DNA of 40,045 bases from IMG/VR virus record IMGVR_UViG_2778261504_000023, positions 1 through 40,045 of that record. One strand, 5' to 3'. The DNA comes from a virus (Duplodnaviria > Heunggongvirae > Uroviricota > Caudoviricetes). The notes beneath the pieces are model-generated. The model worked only from the letters and a program-made list of their open reading frames with translations, ran no database searches and was not told the DNA's origin. Position numbers and translations under genes: made by a program. Numbering within the stretch: position 1 is the stretch's first letter; each line of letters starts with the position of its first letter. This document shows, piece by piece, positions 1-33,185 of the stretch.

Positions 1-1251
1 GTGCTTACCGATACAAAATTAAAAAACCTCAAGCCGCAGGACAAACTGTACAAGGTCTCCGATCGTGACGGGCTGTATGTAGCTGTGCTTACGTCAGGCA
101 CGGTCTCGTTTCGCTATGACTACCGTATCAACGGTCGCCGTGAAACACTGGTAATCGGGCAGTATGGGCGTGACGGTATCAGCCTGGCAGAAGCGCGAGA
201 AGAACTGATTGCTGCAAAGAAGCTGCTTAAAGCAGGCCAGTCGCCGGCTGCGGCTAAACGTGAAGGTATCAAAAAGATTCGTGGTGCCGAGACGTTTGCG
301 GTACATACCGACAGTTATATGAAACACGTCATCCTGGCTGACAGTACCCGCGCAATGAAGCAGGCGGTGATCGACCGTGACATACTTCCGGTTCTTGGCA
401 ACAAAATGATGACTGAAATTACCACATCGATGGTTCGTGATTTGTGTGACCGGATTGTCGAACGCGGTGGTCGGGCAACAGCAGTACAGGCCAGGGAGAT
501 CATCAGCAGCGTATACCGTCACGCCAATGACCGTGGTCATGGTTTGTTTAATCCTGCGGCTGACATTAAACCTTCGTCTATCGCCATATTTAAACCACGA
601 GAGCGAACACTGACACCAGAAGAAATTGGCCTTTTCTTCCGCACGCTGGATGCCATTGGTGCTATGGGCACTATGAAAATGGCTTTAAAACTGGTGCTTA
701 TCACTATGGTTCGTAAGGGCGAATTCACCAATGCAACGTGGGACGAAATAGATTTTAAAAAATGGACATGGACAATTCCTTCAGACCGCATGAAGGGAAG
801 CCGGGCGCACGTTATTTACCTGCCTAAACAGGCACATGATATATTGGTCGGGTTGCAGATGTGTGCTGGTGGAAGTGAATATCTGGTTCCTGGTCGTTAC
901 AACTTCCGGAAGCCATTATCTAATGCCGCGCTGAACTCTCTGATCGACAGAACGGTGAAAATAATAAATGAAGATGGTGAGCATATTCAGGACTTCACTG
1001 TACATGATATGCGCCGTACAGCCAGTACGTTGTTGCATGAAGCTGGTTATCCTTCAGACTGGATTGAAAAGGCTTTGGCACATGAGCAGAAAGGTGTGCG
1101 CGCCGTATATAACAAAGCGGAATACGCCAGACAGCGCGCCTACATGTTGCAGCAGTGGGCCGATATGATTGATTCCTGGATTAACGGGGAGCATACGGAT
1201 CTGATTCCGTTCTCCCCGTCGAAGTTTGAGAAGTGGATGGCGGGGGAATAA
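1..1251 (+). CDS. int: Tyrosine integrase, P4-type phage integrase; GTG at window position 1, so one or two N-terminal codons may lie off-window
   Basis: 416 aa ORF; N-terminus LTDTKLKNLKP..DKLYKVSDRDGLYV..G..SFRYDYRINGRRETLVIGQYG matches the N-terminal arm-binding domain pattern of P4-like integrases; C-terminal catalytic region with HxxR-like (HDMRRTASTLL) and terminal Tyr region. Confidence 0.85.
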   Translation: MLTDTKLKNLKPQDKLYKVSDRDGLYVAVLTSGTVSFRYDYRINGRRETLVIGQYGRDGISLAEAREELIAAKKLLKAGQSPAAAKREGIKKIRGAETFAVHTDSYMKHVILADSTRAMKQAVIDRDILPVLGNKMMTEITTSMVRDLCDRIVERGGRATAVQAREIISSVYRHANDRGHGLFNPAADIKPSSIAIFKPRERTLTPEEIGLFFRTLDAIGAMGTMKMALKLVLITMVRKGEFTNATWDEIDFKKWTWTIPSDRMKGSRAHVIYLPKQAHDILVGLQMCAGGSEYLVPGRYNFRKPLSNAALNSLIDRTVKIINEDGEHIQDFTVHDMRRTASTLLHEAGYPSDWIEKALAHEQKGVRAVYNKAEYARQRAYMLQQWADMIDSWINGEHTDLIPFSPSKFEKWMAGE

Positions 1252-1254
1252 CGT

Positions 1255-1449
1255 TTAATTATTCTGCTGATTTTCTTCCATCTCGGCTTCTGCTGCCAGT
1301 GATTCAATTTTATCTGCGAATATTGCTGACAGTGTTGCAAATTCAGCATCAGTGACAGCGGGAATTGGAACAAACCTGATCCCGCTGTGTGCAAGCATGT
1401 TTGCAGTTTCAAGGCATTTCCTTAAATCTGCTGGTGATGCCCTGTTCAT
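1255..1449 (-). CDS. Hypothetical small protein (about 64 aa)
   Basis: Internal ATG at 1449 overlaps the stop of the upstream methyltransferase gene (ATGA coupling); longer ORF 1255..1569 would overlap the methyltransferase; no recognisable motif. Confidence 0.35.
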   Translation of the reverse strand: MNRASPADLRKCLETANMLAHSGIRFVPIPAVTDAEFATLSAIFADKIESLAAEAEMEENQQNN

Positions 1450-2096
1450 GCAGCACGCTCCCGCCCCTGGTTGTCTGTTGGTGACAGCGGAGCATTGCTG
1501 AATGCATTTGTTAATCCGCCAATATCCAACGCGTATCCATGGTGTAGTTGTACTGCCGGGTCTTCGCACTGATTACCCCAAACATCGAAGCCATGAGACG
1601 ACTGGCGGGCGAACAGTTCAATGCGAGAAACATCGCCTAACAATTGCACAAGTTTTTCACGAACGACATCTGGTTTTCTTGAATGCTCAAGCCGCGGTGC
1701 GGTAAATGACTGAACGATCCCTGCATTAATGCGCGTAGGTAGTTTTCCCTTTACCGCAAACAGGCAATCTTCACTATTGGCGCGAGTCATGTGTCCCATA
1801 CCCATAACCAGTTTATCTGGTTGTCGACTACCACATTTTATCCACGTGAAGCCCTTCATGGTCATCAGACGGAATCCCCAGGCTTCAACAACTTTTAGTG
1901 CTTCGAGTGGTTGTGTTGGCACCCACCACATGGCCAACAGACAGTTTTTATCGGCCAAGTCCCACACAGGAAGGCGGCAGATATCCAGCACACTCATAAC
2001 CGGATATTTAAAACCTGCACCGCGATTACCATCTGCGGCTTTGTCCCGGTATACCCAGGGTGGATCTGCATAGATTAGTGTGTATTTCTTATTCAT
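1446..2096 (-). CDS. DNA N6-adenine methyltransferase, MT-A70 family
   Basis: MNKKYTLIYADPPW... with DPPW catalytic motif near N-terminus; ATG at 2096 preceded by GGGGTGG; upstream ORF stop overlaps this start. Confidence 0.75.
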   Translation of the reverse strand: MNKKYTLIYADPPWVYRDKAADGNRGAGFKYPVMSVLDICRLPVWDLADKNCLLAMWWVPTQPLEALKVVEAWGFRLMTMKGFTWIKCGSRQPDKLVMGMGHMTRANSEDCLFAVKGKLPTRINAGIVQSFTAPRLEHSRKPDVVREKLVQLLGDVSRIELFARQSSHGFDVWGNQCEDPAVQLHHGYALDIGGLTNAFSNAPLSPTDNQGRERAA

Positions 2097-2277
2097 AAAC
2101 CACCCCACAACATCCTATGCCGCTATAGTCGCCACGGCGAAGGCCGTTACCTTTTGTGATACATTGGTCCCTGCGAACCGCGATCCTTGCACGCTCAACA
2201 TCACCAGAAGCAACATCCATACACTGAAGCCAAAGGTGGGTGGCAATGCGGAACTGCCCTTTTTTTCTCTCTTTCAA
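2089..2277 (-). CDS. Hypothetical protein (TTG start in ORF track); possibly the 3' part of a gene split at an A7 homopolymer
   Basis: ORF ends with TAA overlapping the methyltransferase start (ATGAATAA), suggesting translational coupling; an overlapping ORF in another frame (2201..2389) abuts a run of 7 A (coding strand) at 2260..2266. Confidence 0.25.
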   Translation of the reverse strand: MKERKKGQFRIATHLWLQCMDVASGDVERARIAVRRDQCITKGNGLRRGDYSGIGCCGVVYE

Positions 2278-2498
2278 TCGCGCGTTTTTCGATCTCTATC
2301 GCCGCAGGAGTAACGGCAACAACCTTTGAAGGGCTGCGCATTGAAACCTTATTCATGTGATATTTTTCAAGTCGGCTTAACTTTCTCACTTAATCCAACC
2401 CTCTCTGAAAATTAATGCCAGCAGATAAAGCCATGCTGAAACAGAGGCCAGGAATAAGTACCATCCTGACCATTTGCTCCAGTGCCTTAGCAGCGCAC

Positions 2499-2747
2499 TC
2501 ATGCAGCGTTGCTCACGGGACGATATACACGTTGCTGAACAGGAGGTTTTTTACCCTGGAACTCTGCCGGGCTTGCTGCTTGACGTTCATCAAGCCAACG
2601 CTCAACTTCGTCACGGTTCCATGCGCAGCGTTTATCGGTGATATACCAGCGTTTAGGAAATTCCCCTGCGCGCTCCATACGGTCGATAGTGCTCCATGAC
2701 AGTGGCACCACCGCCAGGAGTTCCTTCTTACCTAATGCACCTTTCAT
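2499..2747 (-). CDS. AlpA-family DNA-binding protein (prophage regulator / excisionase-like)
   Basis: LLAVVPLSWSTIDRMERAGEFPKRWYITDKRCAWNRDEVERWLDE resembles AlpA/Xis-type winged-helix proteins of P4-like prophages. Confidence 0.7.
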   Translation of the reverse strand: MKGALGKKELLAVVPLSWSTIDRMERAGEFPKRWYITDKRCAWNRDEVERWLDERQAASPAEFQGKKPPVQQRVYRPVSNAA

Positions 2748-2796
2748 AAATACCTCTCTTGGTTGCAGTGCGGCGCGCGTGGCGCCGCGGTGGTGG

Positions 2797-3678
2797 TTAC
2801 ATAGATGTTTCGTTTAATTCTTCCCGACGAACGCTGTAAACGTCGGTGGCTTTTGCCAGCAGTTCGTCATCATCTGAAAGTTTTTGTGCAATGTATTTGT
2901 AAGCCTTATCCAGTTCGGAGACAGTGCTGTAATTCATCGCTGCGCTGGTAAAGGCCATCAGCATTTCTTCTGGATCACGGCTATCCGCTTTACGCGTTTG
3001 CTCATCAGGCTTTTTCACTGTTTTAGCGTTGATCAGACTATTCATTCCCGCAGCCGTAGTTGTTTGCGGAGTAATGTCTCGCTCAACGCGCGGTGCCGTT
3101 TCCTGTAATTCGTCAGGGGTGTAAACACCGAGAAGTACATCAGGAGCGTGCAGGCGAGCCCATCGTTTCGTGCAAAGATAGGCAAGCTGCTGGCGCGGAT
3201 CCTGCTCCCACAATGGAGAGTTACGCACTCCGGCTTGCGCCATACTGATGGTAAGCTCACGGGGTTCTGCTTCTCCTTTAAGAACTGCTGACACAGTTAC
3301 CGTCAGATTCGGTGATTTATCTGTTTTGCCGTTAACATTCGACCAGTCACCGCTCCAGCGATAATTCAGGCGTGTCGCTAGCAGGCTGGAAGAGGATACG
3401 ACCGCGTTTACCAACTGTGCTTCGTAGCCTAACGTTCCGTTTACCACATGCGTTTTCTGCGCCACGGCGAAAGGGTTCATTCCCCATTGTGCCGCCTGCA
3501 TGGTCACCGCCAGACAATCGGAAGGTTTGCCTTCAAGATGTTTCGGTACAGTCGCTTTGCTTTGTGACATCAACTCCGCGAAACGCACCAGTTGATTCAT
3601 GCCCTCCGGGTTGAAGATTGCCGCAGCAGTACCTACAGTTGCGCCTGGTTGTGATGTGATTGCGATATCATTGCTCAT
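2797..3678 (-). CDS. recT: RecT-family single-strand annealing recombinase
   Basis: 293 aa; conserved RecT-like core (QAAQWGMNPFAVAQKTHVVNG...YRWSGDW); start overlaps stop of upstream exonuclease gene. Confidence 0.8.
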   Translation of the reverse strand: MSNDIAITSQPGATVGTAAAIFNPEGMNQLVRFAELMSQSKATVPKHLEGKPSDCLAVTMQAAQWGMNPFAVAQKTHVVNGTLGYEAQLVNAVVSSSSLLATRLNYRWSGDWSNVNGKTDKSPNLTVTVSAVLKGEAEPRELTISMAQAGVRNSPLWEQDPRQQLAYLCTKRWARLHAPDVLLGVYTPDELQETAPRVERDITPQTTTAAGMNSLINAKTVKKPDEQTRKADSRDPEEMLMAFTSAAMNYSTVSELDKAYKYIAQKLSDDDELLAKATDVYSVRREELNETSM

Positions 3679-4496
3679 ACGTACATATCCTGTTTACGTG
3701 CCCAGTCAGGGCGTTTAATAATTTCCACGCCGCCCCATTCATCATTGATGCGGCATTCGTGATAGGTATTCAGATCCCGGCGGAACAGAGCGTGCCCGGC
3801 ATCGACATCCGGCGCATCCAGCTCGAACACGCGTACCGGATACCGACCACAATCAATGCTTTCGCTCACGGCAAGAAAGAAAAAACCATGCGACTGACCA
3901 GTAACCCTCATCGCTCCTTCGCGGTACATTGCGTCCTGCACGTGGTAGCGGAATTCCTCGATGTGGCGTGCAAAACGGTCCATATCTGCAACCTTTTTCA
4001 CGTCGACGATCACGTTGTGCTCGTTCAGCCATTTGTCTGGACGAATGCGGCACAACTCACCAGTCTCTTCATCATTCCAGTACATTGATGCTTCGCAGTA
4101 ACCAGGTGCTTCCAGCATCCAGCGTGCCGCCGGGTGAGCCATTGCGCTATCACGCATCAGCTCCAGTTTCCGCCACTGCTCGGCATCAAGTACCGTAATC
4201 CCCATATCCGCTACATCACGAAGAAATGCTTCTTCGTCAGCTTTACCTTGTTTCGTCCGACGATCGAACTTCGGTGAAACAATGAAGCGTTTGTCGAATT
4301 CTCCAGGCTCCAGAAGCAGACAGTGCAATGCGGTTCCCATATCCAGTGCAGACTTTTTCTCTTCGTCTTCTGGTGCTGCCTGAACCCATTTAAGAAGCGC
4401 CGGATTCTTGGCAACCATGTCCAGTTGCGACTTACTCACGCCGTCACCGGCGTGGTAGTCTTCGTTGCTGATGTCGAAATAAATTCCCGGTTTCAT
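3675..4496 (-). CDS. RecE-like / PD-(D/E)XK exonuclease, partner of RecT
   Basis: 273 aa; position immediately upstream of recT with overlapping stop/start; acidic and Lys residues consistent with PD-(D/E)XK fold (IVDVKK); typical RecET module arrangement. Confidence 0.65.
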   Translation of the reverse strand: MKPGIYFDISNEDYHAGDGVSKSQLDMVAKNPALLKWVQAAPEDEEKKSALDMGTALHCLLLEPGEFDKRFIVSPKFDRRTKQGKADEEAFLRDVADMGITVLDAEQWRKLELMRDSAMAHPAARWMLEAPGYCEASMYWNDEETGELCRIRPDKWLNEHNVIVDVKKVADMDRFARHIEEFRYHVQDAMYREGAMRVTGQSHGFFFLAVSESIDCGRYPVRVFELDAPDVDAGHALFRRDLNTYHECRINDEWGGVEIIKRPDWARKQDMYV

Positions 4497-4966: not shown

Positions 4967-5045
4967 TTACCTTTTTAGGTAATAATTATGCTTATTTGGT
5001 TTGGTGTCAATAGATATGAGTTAAAAAAAATTACCCGTAAGGTAA
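4967..5045. promoter_or_regulatory. Leftward operator/promoter region (OL-like) with two palindromic sites
   Basis: TTACCTTTTTAGGTAA at 4967..4982 and TTACCCGTAAGGTAA at 5031..5045, between repressor 3' end and start of leftward early operon. Confidence 0.6.
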
Positions 5046-5063
5046 TCTATCTGGCAATAAAAA

Positions 5064-5081
5064 AGCCGCCATGAGGCGGCT
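5064..5081 (-). terminator. Rho-independent terminator downstream of repressor gene (minus strand)
   Basis: Hairpin AGCCGCC-atgag-GCGGCT with run of A on plus strand (U-run on minus) at 5057..5063. Confidence 0.65.
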
Positions 5082-5102
5082 TACTTGCTGAAAACTATAG
5101 TT

Positions 5103-5687
5103 TTATTGTTTGCTTTTTTCGTTCTGGTTGATGACAAATTCAATGTAACTTTCGATCTTTGCTTTCTCTGTTTCAGGTAACAATGCGTAGCGCGAGCGGT
5201 CATAGTTGATAGTTGCAGGGTCGTGCGGGTGAATCAGTAATTCATAGCCGTGACGCCCGAATGCGGATGCAACATTCTCCAGGGTGGAAATGGAAACGCT
5301 GACCTCATTGTTTAACAGGCGGCTGATTGTCACCTGGGCTACGCCGGATGCGCGGTGAAGTTTTCCCTGTGTTGAAAGGTCTCGGCTTTCGCTCATCCAG
5401 CGTTCCAGGTTGTGAGCCGCCAGCTGGCCAATGTCGCTTGGGCCGACAGGCTGAAAACCTTCCTGAGAAAGCGAGCGATCGATATCAAGCCAGTTACGGG
5501 GTTTATTGGCGGCAGCTTCAATTTTTCGTGCAACCTGGTCGCCGATAACCTTCTTGCCAAGAGCCCAGCGGTTTACCAGATTTGCCTGAGTTCCAAGTTT
5601 TTCTGCCATCCGCGTCTGAACACCATTGAATTCACGGTCGATCAAGTCGTTGAGATTTTGCCTGCGGACGTCCTGGATACTTTTCAT
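5103..5687 (-). CDS. Prophage repressor, CI-like but lacking a recognisable S24 autocleavage domain (two HTH-like segments)
   Basis: 194 aa; HTH-like segments QTRMAEKLGTQANLVNRWALGKK and ASGVAQVTISRLLNNEVSVSISTL; divergent from cro-like gene with operator palindromes between; no GDSM/Ala-Gly-Ser-Lys cleavage motifs seen. Confidence 0.6.
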   Translation of the reverse strand: MKSIQDVRRQNLNDLIDREFNGVQTRMAEKLGTQANLVNRWALGKKVIGDQVARKIEAAANKPRNWLDIDRSLSQEGFQPVGPSDIGQLAAHNLERWMSESRDLSTQGKLHRASGVAQVTISRLLNNEVSVSISTLENVASAFGRHGYELLIHPHDPATINYDRSRYALLPETEKAKIESYIEFVINQNEKSKQ

Positions 5688-11588: not shown

Positions 11589-11614
11589 GCCGCCAACTAT
11601 GGCGGCTTTATTTT
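11589..11614 (+). terminator. Rho-independent terminator upstream of terminase genes
   Basis: GCCGCC-aactat-GGCGGC followed by TTTATTTT. Confidence 0.7.
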
Positions 11615-14386: not shown

Positions 14387-14463
14387 TGGCGTGGCATGCA
14401 GGATTCGAACCTGCGACCAACCGCTTAGAAGGCGGTTGCTCTGTCCAACTGAGCTAATGCCAC
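14387..14463 (-). tRNA. tRNA-Arg (anticodon UCU)
   Basis: Reverse complement folds as cloverleaf: acceptor GTGGCAT/ATGCCAC, D-arm GCTC/GAGC, anticodon stem ACCGC/GCGGT with loop CTTCTAA, T-arm GCAGG-TTCGAAT-CCTGC, discriminator G, encoded CCA. Confidence 0.85.
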
Positions 14464-28394: not shown

Positions 28395-30869
28395 ATGAGA
28401 CAGGAATGTATACAAGCGGTCCAGCAGGCGGCGCAGCGCACGTTAACGGCGCGAGAAATACAGAACATTGAAGACCGCATTTATCGAAATATGCGCTCCA
28501 TTGCTCGTGATGACCCGATGTCGTGGAGACAACTTTCCGAATCAGAGCGGCTATATCGTGCAGCACAATTGGCATCTGAAGGATTACAGCGAGAAGCGGC
28601 ATTAAAGAAACGTCGTGTGGCCCTCACTATAGCCGCACGTCAGAGATTGGATAAATTTATCAATAGCTATCAAGGGGCTGATGGGAAACTTGGCGCTCTT
28701 AACCGTACTATTGCTTTTAATGCAGACGGTAAATCGAATTTCCTCTCTGTTGAATCCAGAACAAAAGCCACCCGTGATTATGCATTGAGTCAATTGCAGG
28801 AGGCATTCGAAGCAGTTGATCCTCGCTTTTTTGGTCTGTTTGAAGATGAAGCGGGCGTACGTGACCTGGTATATGAAATGCGGGGGCAAAATACTGGCAA
28901 TGCTAAAGCAAGAAAAGGTGCTAAGGCGTGGAGAGAAGTTACAGAGCTGCTGCGCCGCCGGTTTAATGATGCTGGTGGGGACATTGGCTATCTCGAAAAC
29001 TGGGGGATCCCTCAACATCATTCTATGGAAAAGGTTGGGGCGGTATCAAAAGATAAATGGGTTAGCGATGTTATAGGTAAGCTGGATCGCAAATATTATA
29101 CCCTAGCCGATGGACAACTGATGAACGATGCCGAGTTGTCTGCATTTCTTGGAGAGGCTTATAACACGATCGCTACTGGTGGGCTGAATAAGCTTACTGA
29201 TACCGGAATGCGAATTTCCGGCGCACGTGCTAACCGTGGTAATGCATCACGACAGATACATTTCAAAGATGCAGATTCCTATCTGCAATATCAGCAACTT
29301 TATGGCGATCGCTCTCTATGGGAAATCATGGTCGGTCACCTTGAAGGTATCAGTAAAGATATTGCATTGGTGGAAACATATGGCCCAAACCCCGATCATG
29401 TTTTCCGCTCTCTTCTTGATCAGGTGAAGGCAGAAACGGCAACAGCTAACCCGAGTAAAACCGGTAAAGTCGAGCGGCTGGCGAACAACACAGAGAATCT
29501 GTACAACTTTATTTCCGGAAAGACACAGCCTGTAGCGAATCCGCACATCGCGCGCTGGTCTGACAATATCCGCAACTGGCTGGTTGCCAGCCGACTAGGA
29601 TCCGCGTTGCTGTCATCGTTCTCTGATCTTGGAACCATGTATCTGTCTGCGAAGGTGACCAACCTTCCAATGAACCAGTTATTCCGCAACCAGCTTGAAG
29701 CTATGGACCCAACGAACCGTACTGAGCTTGCGCGGGCGCGCCGCGCTGGTCTGGCGATGGAATCTCTACTTGGCAGTGTTAACCGCTGGGCGATGGATAA
29801 TATGGGGCCGTCTGTGTCTCGTTGGGCGGCGACGGCGGTAATGCGTGCCAGTGGGCTTACAGCATGGTCAGATGCGCACAAGCGCGCCTATGGCGTAACC
29901 ATGATGGGAAGCCTGGGAGAAGTAGTGTCACGGACACCAGACCTTCGTAGCCTCGATGACTCTGATTTTCGTATCCTGAAAAGCAAAGGGATTACTGACA
30001 CAGACTGGAGTGTATGGAAGCTGGCGCAACAGGAGGACTGGGGGAACGGTAATAATACGATGCTGACACCGGAAAGCATTATGCGTATCCCTGATTCAGC
30101 AGTTAAACATCTTGGTGAGCCTGAACGCGTGAAATTTGAGGCAATGCGTAAACTGCTCGGTGCCGTAACTGAAGAAGTTGATATGGCTGTTATTACACCG
30201 GGTGCACGTGAGAAACTGATAACCGGTTCTGGTATTCAGCGTGGAACATGGAAAGGTGAATTAACGAGAAGTGTTTTCCTGTTTAAATCGTTCCCTATCT
30301 CGGTGGTTATGCGTCACTGGTCACGCGCTATGGGTATGCCGTCGGCTGGTGGGCGTGCGGCATATATTGCGACGTTTATTGCCAGTACGACCATTCTTGG
30401 CGCTTTGTCGCAGCAACTTAACGACCTTGCGTCTGGTCGTAATCCTCGCGAGATGACAGGAGAAGATGCTGCTAAATTTTGGCTTGGTGCTCTACTGAAA
30501 GGTGGTGGTCTTGGCCTTTACGGTGACTTTTTATTGTCAGATCACACTAGGTACGGAAGCGGCGCGCTGGCGTCGATGCTTGGCCCGGTAGCTGGTCTGG
30601 TTGATGACGTAGTGAAGATTGCTCAGGGCATACCGTTAAATGCTGTGGAAGGGAAGAGTGAGCAGACTGGTGGTGATCTGGTGAAGCTGGGGAAAGGTTT
30701 GATGCCAGGTGCGAATCTCTGGTACTTAAAGGCGGCTCTCGATCATATGATCTTTAACCAGATGCAGGAGTATTTTTCACCAGGCTATTTGCGTAAAATG
30801 GAGCAACGTTCGAAGAAAGAGTTTAACCAGACATACTGGTGGCGACCTCAGGATGTCACTCCGCAATAA
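28395..30869 (+). CDS. Internal virion / ejection protein (824 aa, gp16-like position)
   Basis: SD GAGAGG; large protein at position of podoviral core proteins. Confidence 0.45.
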   Translation: MRQECIQAVQQAAQRTLTAREIQNIEDRIYRNMRSIARDDPMSWRQLSESERLYRAAQLASEGLQREAALKKRRVALTIAARQRLDKFINSYQGADGKLGALNRTIAFNADGKSNFLSVESRTKATRDYALSQLQEAFEAVDPRFFGLFEDEAGVRDLVYEMRGQNTGNAKARKGAKAWREVTELLRRRFNDAGGDIGYLENWGIPQHHSMEKVGAVSKDKWVSDVIGKLDRKYYTLADGQLMNDAELSAFLGEAYNTIATGGLNKLTDTGMRISGARANRGNASRQIHFKDADSYLQYQQLYGDRSLWEIMVGHLEGISKDIALVETYGPNPDHVFRSLLDQVKAETATANPSKTGKVERLANNTENLYNFISGKTQPVANPHIARWSDNIRNWLVASRLGSALLSSFSDLGTMYLSAKVTNLPMNQLFRNQLEAMDPTNRTELARARRAGLAMESLLGSVNRWAMDNMGPSVSRWAATAVMRASGLTAWSDAHKRAYGVTMMGSLGEVVSRTPDLRSLDDSDFRILKSKGITDTDWSVWKLAQQEDWGNGNNTMLTPESIMRIPDSAVKHLGEPERVKFEAMRKLLGAVTEEVDMAVITPGAREKLITGSGIQRGTWKGELTRSVFLFKSFPISVVMRHWSRAMGMPSAGGRAAYIATFIASTTILGALSQQLNDLASGRNPREMTGEDAAKFWLGALLKGGGLGLYGDFLLSDHTRYGSGALASMLGPVAGLVDDVVKIAQGIPLNAVEGKSEQTGGDLVKLGKGLMPGANLWYLKAALDHMIFNQMQEYFSPGYLRKMEQRSKKEFNQTYWWRPQDVTPQ

Positions 30870-31369: not shown

Positions 31370-31395
31370 AGGCCGCTTTCGCGGCCTTGTTTTTA
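31370..31395 (+). terminator. Rho-independent terminator (plus strand)
   Basis: AGGCCGC-tttc-GCGGCCT followed by TGTTTTT. Confidence 0.7.
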
Positions 31396-31434: not shown

Positions 31435-31456
31435 AAAAAAGCCCGCGGCGCGGGCT
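31435..31456 (-). terminator. Rho-independent terminator (minus strand) after moron gene
   Basis: On plus strand AAAAAA then GCCCGCG-gc-GCGGGC; U-run on minus. Confidence 0.65.
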
Positions 31457-32919: not shown

Positions 32920-33185
32920 AGTGATCACCTTTGTAGTTAGGTTAATCACCACTACCGACGCCAATCGGTTGGTGGTGAACTGTGCAGGGTTGGCGTAACC
33001 GGCTACAAAGGACCCGGCGCACCTTTCGGTGCCCCCACACAGCCCACCATAGAATAGGTGCGCTTTACACATAAAAAAACCGCTTATGCGGCATATGTGC
33101 CTCTGTAGTAACCCGGGACGCCAATCCCGGCACTGGATTTTGCCAGTGCCCGATTACTATGGCACAAGAGGAGTGCGATGTAAAT

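Follow-up and report, generated by a model that had tools for sequence, protein, structure and literature searches.

The spacer between recT and the AlpA-like gene of this phage carries a 19-nt perfect hairpin, and comparison of its orthologues shows it to be a cis-acting RNA stem-loop on the early-left polycistronic transcript, with a stem that is selected as a structure. Judging from its anatomy and by analogy with known elements, we propose, at a probability of about 0.4, that it may be a U-less protective stem-loop blocking 3'-5' exonucleases. The stretch of DNA analyzed here (40,045 nt, hereafter the window) is a Uetakevirus-type (epsilon15/phiV10-like) phage, and the hairpin lies on its minus-strand early-left operon.

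Position, sequence and fold of the hairpin

On the plus strand of the window the hairpin reads GCGGCGC (2770-2776), GCGTG (2777-2781) and GCGCCGC (2782-2788), precisely as in a preliminary description of this DNA, and so consists of a perfect 7-bp stem made only of G:C pairs and a 5-nt loop. The preliminary description had placed it on the transcript between the recT stop and the AlpA-like start; all genes around it are indeed on the minus strand, and Pfam supports the identity of both neighbors. The features referred to below are, in order of position:

1-1251, plus strand: tyrosine integrase (ORF list)
1446-2108, minus strand: MT-A70 methylase (Pfam MT-A70)
2499-2747, minus strand: AlpA-like excisionase/regulator gene, the downstream cistron (Pfam PF05930, Phage_AlpA, 24.2 bits against a cutoff of 21)
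2748-2796, minus strand: recT-alpA intercistronic spacer, 49 nt (ORF coordinates)
2753-2760, minus strand: Shine-Dalgarno of the AlpA-like gene, AAGAGAGG (sequence; conserved, entropy 0.23 bits)
2770-2788, minus strand: RNA hairpin (sequence, MFE and centroid fold, pair probabilities, RNAalifold consensus and covariation on 76 distinct orthologous spacers)
2788-2782, 2781-2777 and 2776-2770, minus-strand RNA: its 5' arm GCGGCGC, loop CACGC and 3' arm GCGCCGC
2789-2796, minus strand: conserved C/A-rich 5' flank CCACCACC, from the recT stop to the stem (shared by most clades, also where the recT allele differs)
2797-3678, minus strand: recT, a RecT-family single-strand annealing protein, the upstream cistron (Pfam PF03837, 109.7 bits; stop codon 2797-2799)
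3675-4496, minus strand: PD-(D/E)XK exonuclease, exo (Pfam DUF3799/PDDEXK)
4982-5010, minus strand: candidate early-left promoter TTGACA-17-AATTAT (consensus scan, 10/12 matches)
5063-5082, minus strand: canonical intrinsic terminator after the repressor gene, an 8-bp stem followed by TTTTTATT (terminator scan)
5103-5687, minus strand: cI-type repressor (ORF list; Pfam HTH_3)

From the recT stop to the alpA start, the sense RNA reads UAA-CCACCACC-GCGGCGC-CACGC-GCGCCGC-ACUGCAACCAAGAGAGGUAUUU-AUG. The stem starts 8 nt past the recT stop and the alpA ATG lies 22 nt 3' of it, a stretch made up of ACUGCAACC, the Shine-Dalgarno AAGAGAGG and UAUUU. RNA folding, which the preliminary description had put forward as a check, returned the hairpin as both the MFE and the centroid structure of the spacer, with probabilities of 0.99-1.00 for all seven stem pairs in a 400-nt context and a dG of -13.7 kcal/mol for the hairpin folded in isolation. 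The alpA Shine-Dalgarno, 9 nt 3' of the stem, is unpaired or weakly paired in the folds and is not sequestered by the hairpin. An anti-Shine-Dalgarno role for the flank CCACCACC was considered and rejected, its complementarity to the alpA Shine-Dalgarno being just 3 bp and the pairing being absent from the folds. The preliminary description had noted the lack of a U-run, and neither strand of the window carries one beside the stem.

The spacer is the sole sizeable gap in this stretch of genes, exo and recT as well as alpA and the next ORF being joined by 4-nt overlaps of the ATGA type. Besides the genes listed, the minus strand holds two small ORFs between the repressor and exo, and, after alpA, a 38-codon ORF and a PerC-family gene that Pfam supports; relatives of the AlpA-like gene carry the annotation AlpA family or excisionase. 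Judged by its match to the consensus, the sigma-70 site at 5010-4982 (-), located past the repressor-gene terminator, is likely the promoter of the hairpin's operon. It lies ~2.2 kb from the hairpin, the equivalent region of epsilon15 holds annotated repressor operators, and a promoter scan returned no internal promoter in the recT-alpA spacer. The PerC-family activator gene (2089-2389, minus strand) is split into two overlapping 62-codon ORFs; when compared by tblastn with the intact PerC of phiV10 and of an E. coli prophage, residues 1-43 fall in one frame and residues 38-100 in another, and the switch near 2262-2277 represents a frameshift, either of a pseudogene or from a sequencing error.

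Conservation and covariation of the stem

Taken from one sequence alone, the hairpin is barely beyond chance. The 40 kb hold a single perfect 7-bp hairpin with G:C pairs only, this one, against 0.2 expected from dinucleotide shuffles; at least one such hairpin occurs in 15% of the shuffled windows and the local fold z-score is just -1.3, and so the single sequence yields no significance. Perfect 7-bp hairpins with loops of 3-8 nt number 50 in the window, compared to 16 +/- 5 in dinucleotide shuffles.

Relatives of the region are plentiful. It is 94-99% identical to that of the Escherichia phages phiv142-3, vB_EcoP_ZX5, TL-2011b and phiV10, and 71-80% identical to that of Uetakevirus members of Salmonella, Klebsiella and Enterobacter. 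As a prophage it occurs in 557 of 5426 complete E. coli genomes, with the 901-nt hairpin region found at a median of one place per genome. The paper describing vB_EcoP_ZX5, which is 98.6% identical here, makes no mention of AlpA, RecT, hairpins or terminators. For the comparison we used ~200 loci around AlpA homologues, taken from phage records, IMG/VR and GTDB genomes, and a second sample of 275 further sites, found with patterns that fixed the flanks alone, so that the sites were not chosen by their stem.

The hairpin was present in every locus having a RecT-family ORF upstream of alpA (197/197), across Escherichia, Salmonella, Klebsiella, Enterobacter and other genera, and it was absent from the two AlpA homologues that have no recT upstream (L018 and L019). 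Among the loci collected, none separated the property of following recT from that of preceding alpA, and when E. coli genomes were searched with the 3' end of the epsilon15 recT for hairpins after recT elsewhere, only the same recT-alpA arrangement was found. One collected locus (L017, NZ_JBFRCG010000097.1), a 399-bp sequence labelled Paraburkholderia sp. EG287B, is 100% identical to alpA and spacer of an E. coli phage; at 0.9x coverage, it is almost certainly contamination of that assembly.

The recT genes upstream form a mosaic. Among E. coli relatives, at least two unrelated 3' ends of recT occur, ...CATCTATGTAA and ...GAATTCGAGTAA, each joined to the identical spacer exactly at the stop codon, and in genomes with other recombinase alleles the matches to the epsilon15 recT 3'-end query begin exactly at the stop codon. 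In the window and in the relatives L021, L026 and L045 this codon (2797-2799) is the breakpoint of the recT exchange. Some genes upstream had been taken for 'bet'/'Bet', an identity that we rejected, as they are RecT-family chimeras which share the C-terminus of the window's RecT, and only its last ~90 residues. Since the different recT alleles join the same spacer at the stop, spacer and hairpin always stay with alpA. We read this junction as probable ordinary modular mosaicism and not as a function of the hairpin.

Comparative evidence for the stem is significant, because it is kept in all recT-alpA loci while the third positions of alpA diverge. In the relatives compared, synonymous third positions of alpA are 51-66% identical to those of the window, and the 14 stem bases of these same relatives are either unchanged or changed in compensated pairs only, with the exception of L170/L172, whose altered 3' arm still allows a shifted helix of 6 bp, GGCGCC/GGCGCC. 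By our arithmetic, the probability that a lineage retains 14/14 stem bases at ~55% neutral identity is near 2e-4. All entropy and covariation figures are based on the 76 distinct 63-nt spacers, aligned with MAFFT. The entropy was 0.15-0.20 bits for the stem arms, compared to 1.10 bits for the loop, 0.95 bits for the 3' flank and 0.97 bits for the stretch between Shine-Dalgarno and ATG; the arms are thus conserved on a par with the Shine-Dalgarno, whereas loop and 3' flank vary. The 5' flank CCACCACC stands at 0.40 bits, against 0.85-1.1 in neutral-looking columns. Spacing across relatives is held as well, with mostly 8 nt from stop to stem and 18-23 nt from stem to ATG. The flank-anchored sample gave the same picture, loop variants being common and stem variants rare among the 275 sites: at the 193 E. 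coli sites the loop alleles were CACGC (104), CACAC (43), CACGT (21) and CATAC (5), while each stem variant occurred in at most 8 sites, half of those sites being wobble-preserving.

The loop takes at least 15 sequences of 3-6 nt among the variants, namely CACGC, CACAC, CACGU, CAUAC, CACG, CACA, CCG, CGG, CGGGC, GCCCG, CCGGC, CGCGC, UGCGC, CGUG, GAGAA, AGUAC and UGCG. In Klebsiella-type relatives, 31 sites have the loop CGGGC and 13 have its exact reverse complement, GCCCG, between identical arms (for instance L112 against L113, both at 1441-1503), and the coexistence of these two loops indicates a probable inversion of the palindrome or of the loop at the DNA level.

RNAalifold, applied to the alignment, recovered exactly this helix and nothing else. 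Of the stem-column cells, 99.2% pair, a share that falls to 15-65% if the 3' partners are shifted by 1-3 columns. Compensatory double changes were found at two pairs: C2:G18 to U:A in 8 rows, from the epsilon15, SPN1S, BUCT554, Superficieibacter and Pseudocitrobacter lineages, and G4:C16 to A:U in a single row (L189). Taken alone, such changes would preserve a palindrome in the DNA no less than a helix in the RNA. More telling are the stem transitions that lack compensation, as 7 of them are C-to-U events that leave a G·U or U·G pair in the sense RNA (U2·G18, G3·U17, G4·U16 twice, U5·G15 twice and G6·U14) and would read as A·C mismatches on the antisense strand, whereas a single one is a G-to-A event (C7·A13, at the loop-closing pair); transversions are rare (4). 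This 7:1 bias has a one-sided binomial probability of ~0.035, for a hand count of apparently independent events and on the assumption that C-to-T and G-to-A changes occur at equal rates. G4·U16 is even the majority allele (20/31) in the Salmonella PAT1-like clade, of which one member has completed the change to A:U. Because the one-sided changes are mostly G·U pairs possible in the sense RNA only, and because the spacing of the half-sites varies over 3-6 nt, selection very probably acts on the RNA helix in the sense transcript.

Comparison with known hairpin classes

An intrinsic terminator is among the candidates that we rejected: the GC-rich stem is present, but its tail, ACUGCAAC, lacks a U-run, and the same is true of all 76 distinct variants, in which the 8 nt behind the stem hold no more than 3 T, never contiguous. 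The terminator scan of the window did not call the hairpin either. Four other strong GC hairpins in the window do have U-runs, at 5064-5081 (-), 11589-11606 (+), 31370-31387 (+) and 31440-31456 (-), with the tails TTTTTATT, TTTATTTT, TGTTTTT or TTTTTGTG, and so, since the same phage builds canonical U-run terminators elsewhere in the window, the recT-alpA hairpin is not one of them. All four look like canonical intrinsic terminators, and the pair at 31370-31387 and 31440-31456 lies on opposite strands, 53 bp apart. An intrinsic terminator on the antisense strand was ruled out for the window as well, the antisense tail being GGUGGUGGUUACAU. In one IMG/VR clade (L192-L207) the 5' flank is TCAAAC or AAATCAAAC, not CCACCACC, and on the antisense strand the hairpin is followed by GUUUGAUUU, a U-rich terminator-like tail that is absent from the window.

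In lambda, tL3 is a canonical Rho-independent terminator in the pL operon, located downstream of exo and read through by N-modified polymerase. It shares with the window hairpin a place between the recombination genes and the downstream genes of the early-left operon (in lambda, those of the b region and xis-int), whereas the window hairpin lacks a U-tract and its phage shows no evident antitermination system. The boxB hairpins of lambda and P22 (nut) and the put hairpins of HK022 are, like it, small cis-acting RNA hairpins on phage early transcripts; boxB, however, needs a conserved loop bound by N and comes with a neighboring boxA close to the promoter, while the loop of the window hairpin and its orthologues varies over 3-6 nt and even in orientation, and the hairpin finds no Rfam match. 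Because this loop varies freely, inversion included, boxB-like recognition of it is excluded, and with sequence, length and orientation of the loop all free and the candidate promoter ~2.2 kb away, an antitermination hairpin of the boxB/nut type was rejected.

Intercistronic GC-rich palindromes are also found among REP/BIME repeats. The REP of malE-malF, studied by Newbury, Higgins and co-workers in 1987, reportedly stabilizes the upstream mRNA against 3'-5' decay and so leads to differential expression within the operon. REPs, however, are imperfect, ~35 nt long and dispersed in hundreds of copies that follow a consensus, whereas the window hairpin is perfect, 19 nt long and single-copy, and presumably unlike the REP consensus in sequence. 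A REP/BIME repeat was rejected on these counts, there being one copy in the 40-kb window and, in relatives, copies solely at the recT-alpA junction.

The closest known counterpart is in epsilon15, whose record (NC_004775.2 / AY150271.2) annotates 30056-30073 as 'stem-loop; transcriptional pausing', the only such feature in it; the orthologous hairpin is unannotated in the phiV10 record. The epsilon15 stem-loop is an orthologue of the window's: it sits in the corresponding spacer, which separates a RecT gene from the AlpA-like gp33, and its 7-bp stem likewise follows the 5' flank CACCACC. What sets it apart is a compensatory change at one pair (GUGGCGC/GCGCCAC), a loop of 4 nt and, upstream, another recT allele.

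Proposed function and its alternatives

The preliminary description had suggested a processing or stability element. Of these, processing by RNase III falls away, as such a site needs ~20 bp (two helical turns) and the stem has 7 bp, or 8 in the PAT1 clade, with flanks that cannot extend it. Stability would fit the anatomy best, because the stem is very stable, the loop irrelevant, a U-tract missing and the distance from the stop 8 nt. We accordingly propose a barrier to 3'-5' exonucleases, a reading drawn from the all-G:C helix (-12 to -15 kcal/mol in every variant among the relatives), its start ~8 nt after the stop and a free Shine-Dalgarno at least 9 nt downstream. 3' ends would arise downstream, on full transcripts or on decay intermediates produced by endonucleolytic cleavage or premature termination, and PNPase, RNase II or RNase R would trim the RNA 3'-to-5' until reaching the 7-bp G:C helix, which would begin just past the footprint of the ribosome terminating at recT. 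The upstream translationally coupled block (small ORFs, exo and recT) would be left as a stable message and the downstream coupled block (AlpA-like, small membrane protein, PerC and MT-A70 methylase) would decay independently, so that one promoter could supply recombination functions and excision/regulatory functions at different levels. The hairpin also occupies the sole true gap here, with a block of overlapping genes on either side.

Such elements are known from E. coli, in which Dar and Sorek (2018, PMC6061677) showed that stable stem-loops without a U-rich tail mark the steady-state 3' ends of transcripts and shield these ends from PNPase and RNase II. The window hairpin has the makings of this class, being a stable stem-loop with no U-rich sequence after it, found soon after the stop codon of a coding region, in an E. 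coli-type host that has the same exonucleases. The class is, however, defined by mapped 3' ends of Rho-terminated units, whereas the window hairpin is internal to an operon and is followed 22 nt later by a translated gene.

Some observations count against a barrier. With alpA only 22 nt downstream and provided with a strong Shine-Dalgarno, most transcripts probably read through the hairpin into alpA, and the epsilon15 annotators chose a different label. The stem sequence GCGGCGC is also unusually constant, which could mean sequence-specific recognition. Because this sequence is far more constant than the stability of a helix requires, the hairpin might serve as a gate, its invariant helix being read by a factor of phage or host origin, be it a nuclease, a helicase or a protein that modifies polymerase, which would time or limit the excisionase/PerC/methylase block relative to the recombination genes; we regard this as highly improbable.

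A pause in transcription would account for the hairpin differently. The nascent hairpin would contact RNA polymerase and hold it ~10-12 nt further on, shortly ahead of the ribosome-binding site of alpA; the delay could give the ribosome that completes recT time to close up, or could time the downstream block. Hairpin-dependent pause signals of the his/trp leader class also draw on the sequence 3' of the hairpin. Here a hairpin is present, but the 10-14 nt that follow its stem are among the most variable columns of the alignment (0.95 bits, with indels) and hold no conserved G(-10)/Y(-1)/G(+1), which weakens the pausing label, and pause hairpins do not require an all-G:C stem. That the structure is selected at the RNA level, on the sense strand, speaks for a pause, as does the label on the orthologous epsilon15 hairpin; this label, however, is a prediction behind which a literature search, the epsilon15 genome paper lying outside it, found no experiment. 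The comparative data fit a stability barrier better, and we consider pausing unlikely. Quite unlikely, in our estimate, is a translational insulator, in which the helix would keep ribosomes that terminate at recT from sliding or scanning onward to alpA and would also fix the structural context of the alpA ribosome-binding site, uncoupling translation of the excisionase from that of the heavily translated recombination genes. It would suit the one junction without overlap in a series otherwise joined by overlaps of the ATGA type, the constrained distances on both sides of the stem and the Shine-Dalgarno left free, yet translating ribosomes readily unwind such helices; it is also compatible with the barrier model and not exclusive of it.

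The preliminary description had further raised an attenuator separating recombination genes from excision control, which in a weak or factor-dependent form would draw on the position between functional modules, analogous to that of lambda tL3 downstream of exo, and on the very stable GC stem. It found no support in the comparison with 76 variants out of 76 devoid of a U-run and with the canonical U-run hairpins of the same window; moreover, the unconserved loop offers no recruitment site of the boxB type, and inspection of the first ORFs of the operon revealed no evident N-like arginine-rich protein, leaving a weak attenuator very unlikely. We find it just as hard to credit an element acting at the DNA level, whether a palindrome for a dimeric protein, a cruciform or a conserved linker for recombination between recT alleles. 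Window-type, epsilon15/Rac-type and chimeric recT alleles do all meet the same spacer right at the stop codon, the inversion from CGGGC to GCCCG is the kind of event that DNA palindromes undergo, and the stem holds GGCGCC, which has only four occurrences in the window. A half-site spacing of 3-6 nt is nevertheless poor for a dimeric DNA-binding site, the one-sided changes run 7:1 toward pairing in the sense RNA with G·U as the major allele of one clade, and selection for recombinants that function would be expected to leave mosaic junctions at gene boundaries, with no need of a special site.

If the exonuclease barrier is true, phages of the epsilon15/phiV10 type would dose recombination against the excisionase/regulator block from a single early promoter, which would bear on the dosing of excision and lysogenic conversion functions. 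The hairpin is of a known kind, an intercistronic U-less stabilizer, and had already been noticed by the epsilon15 annotators; what is added here is the covariation and wobble evidence and a functional label that fits better, and no new question is opened. As a short, phylogenetically validated RNA motif that is absent from Rfam, it marks the recT-alpA junction in hundreds of enterobacterial prophages.

At gathering thresholds, an Rfam search of the whole window gave no match at the hairpin, and at E up to 10 the region 2650-2900 gave chance-level matches only (E ~5), to unrelated eukaryotic families nearby. Two other stretches of the window scored above the Rfam gathering score, a C4 antisense RNA (RF01695) at 32968-33054 (-), with 79.5 bits, and, adjoining it, an isrK Hfq-binding RNA (RF01394) at 33073-33149 (-), with 74.7 bits. 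Going by these matches, the stretch looks like a P1/P7-type c4 antisense immunity region (antirepressor control) in a podovirus. The window also holds a phage-borne tRNA-Arg (anticodon TCT) at 14387-14463 (-).
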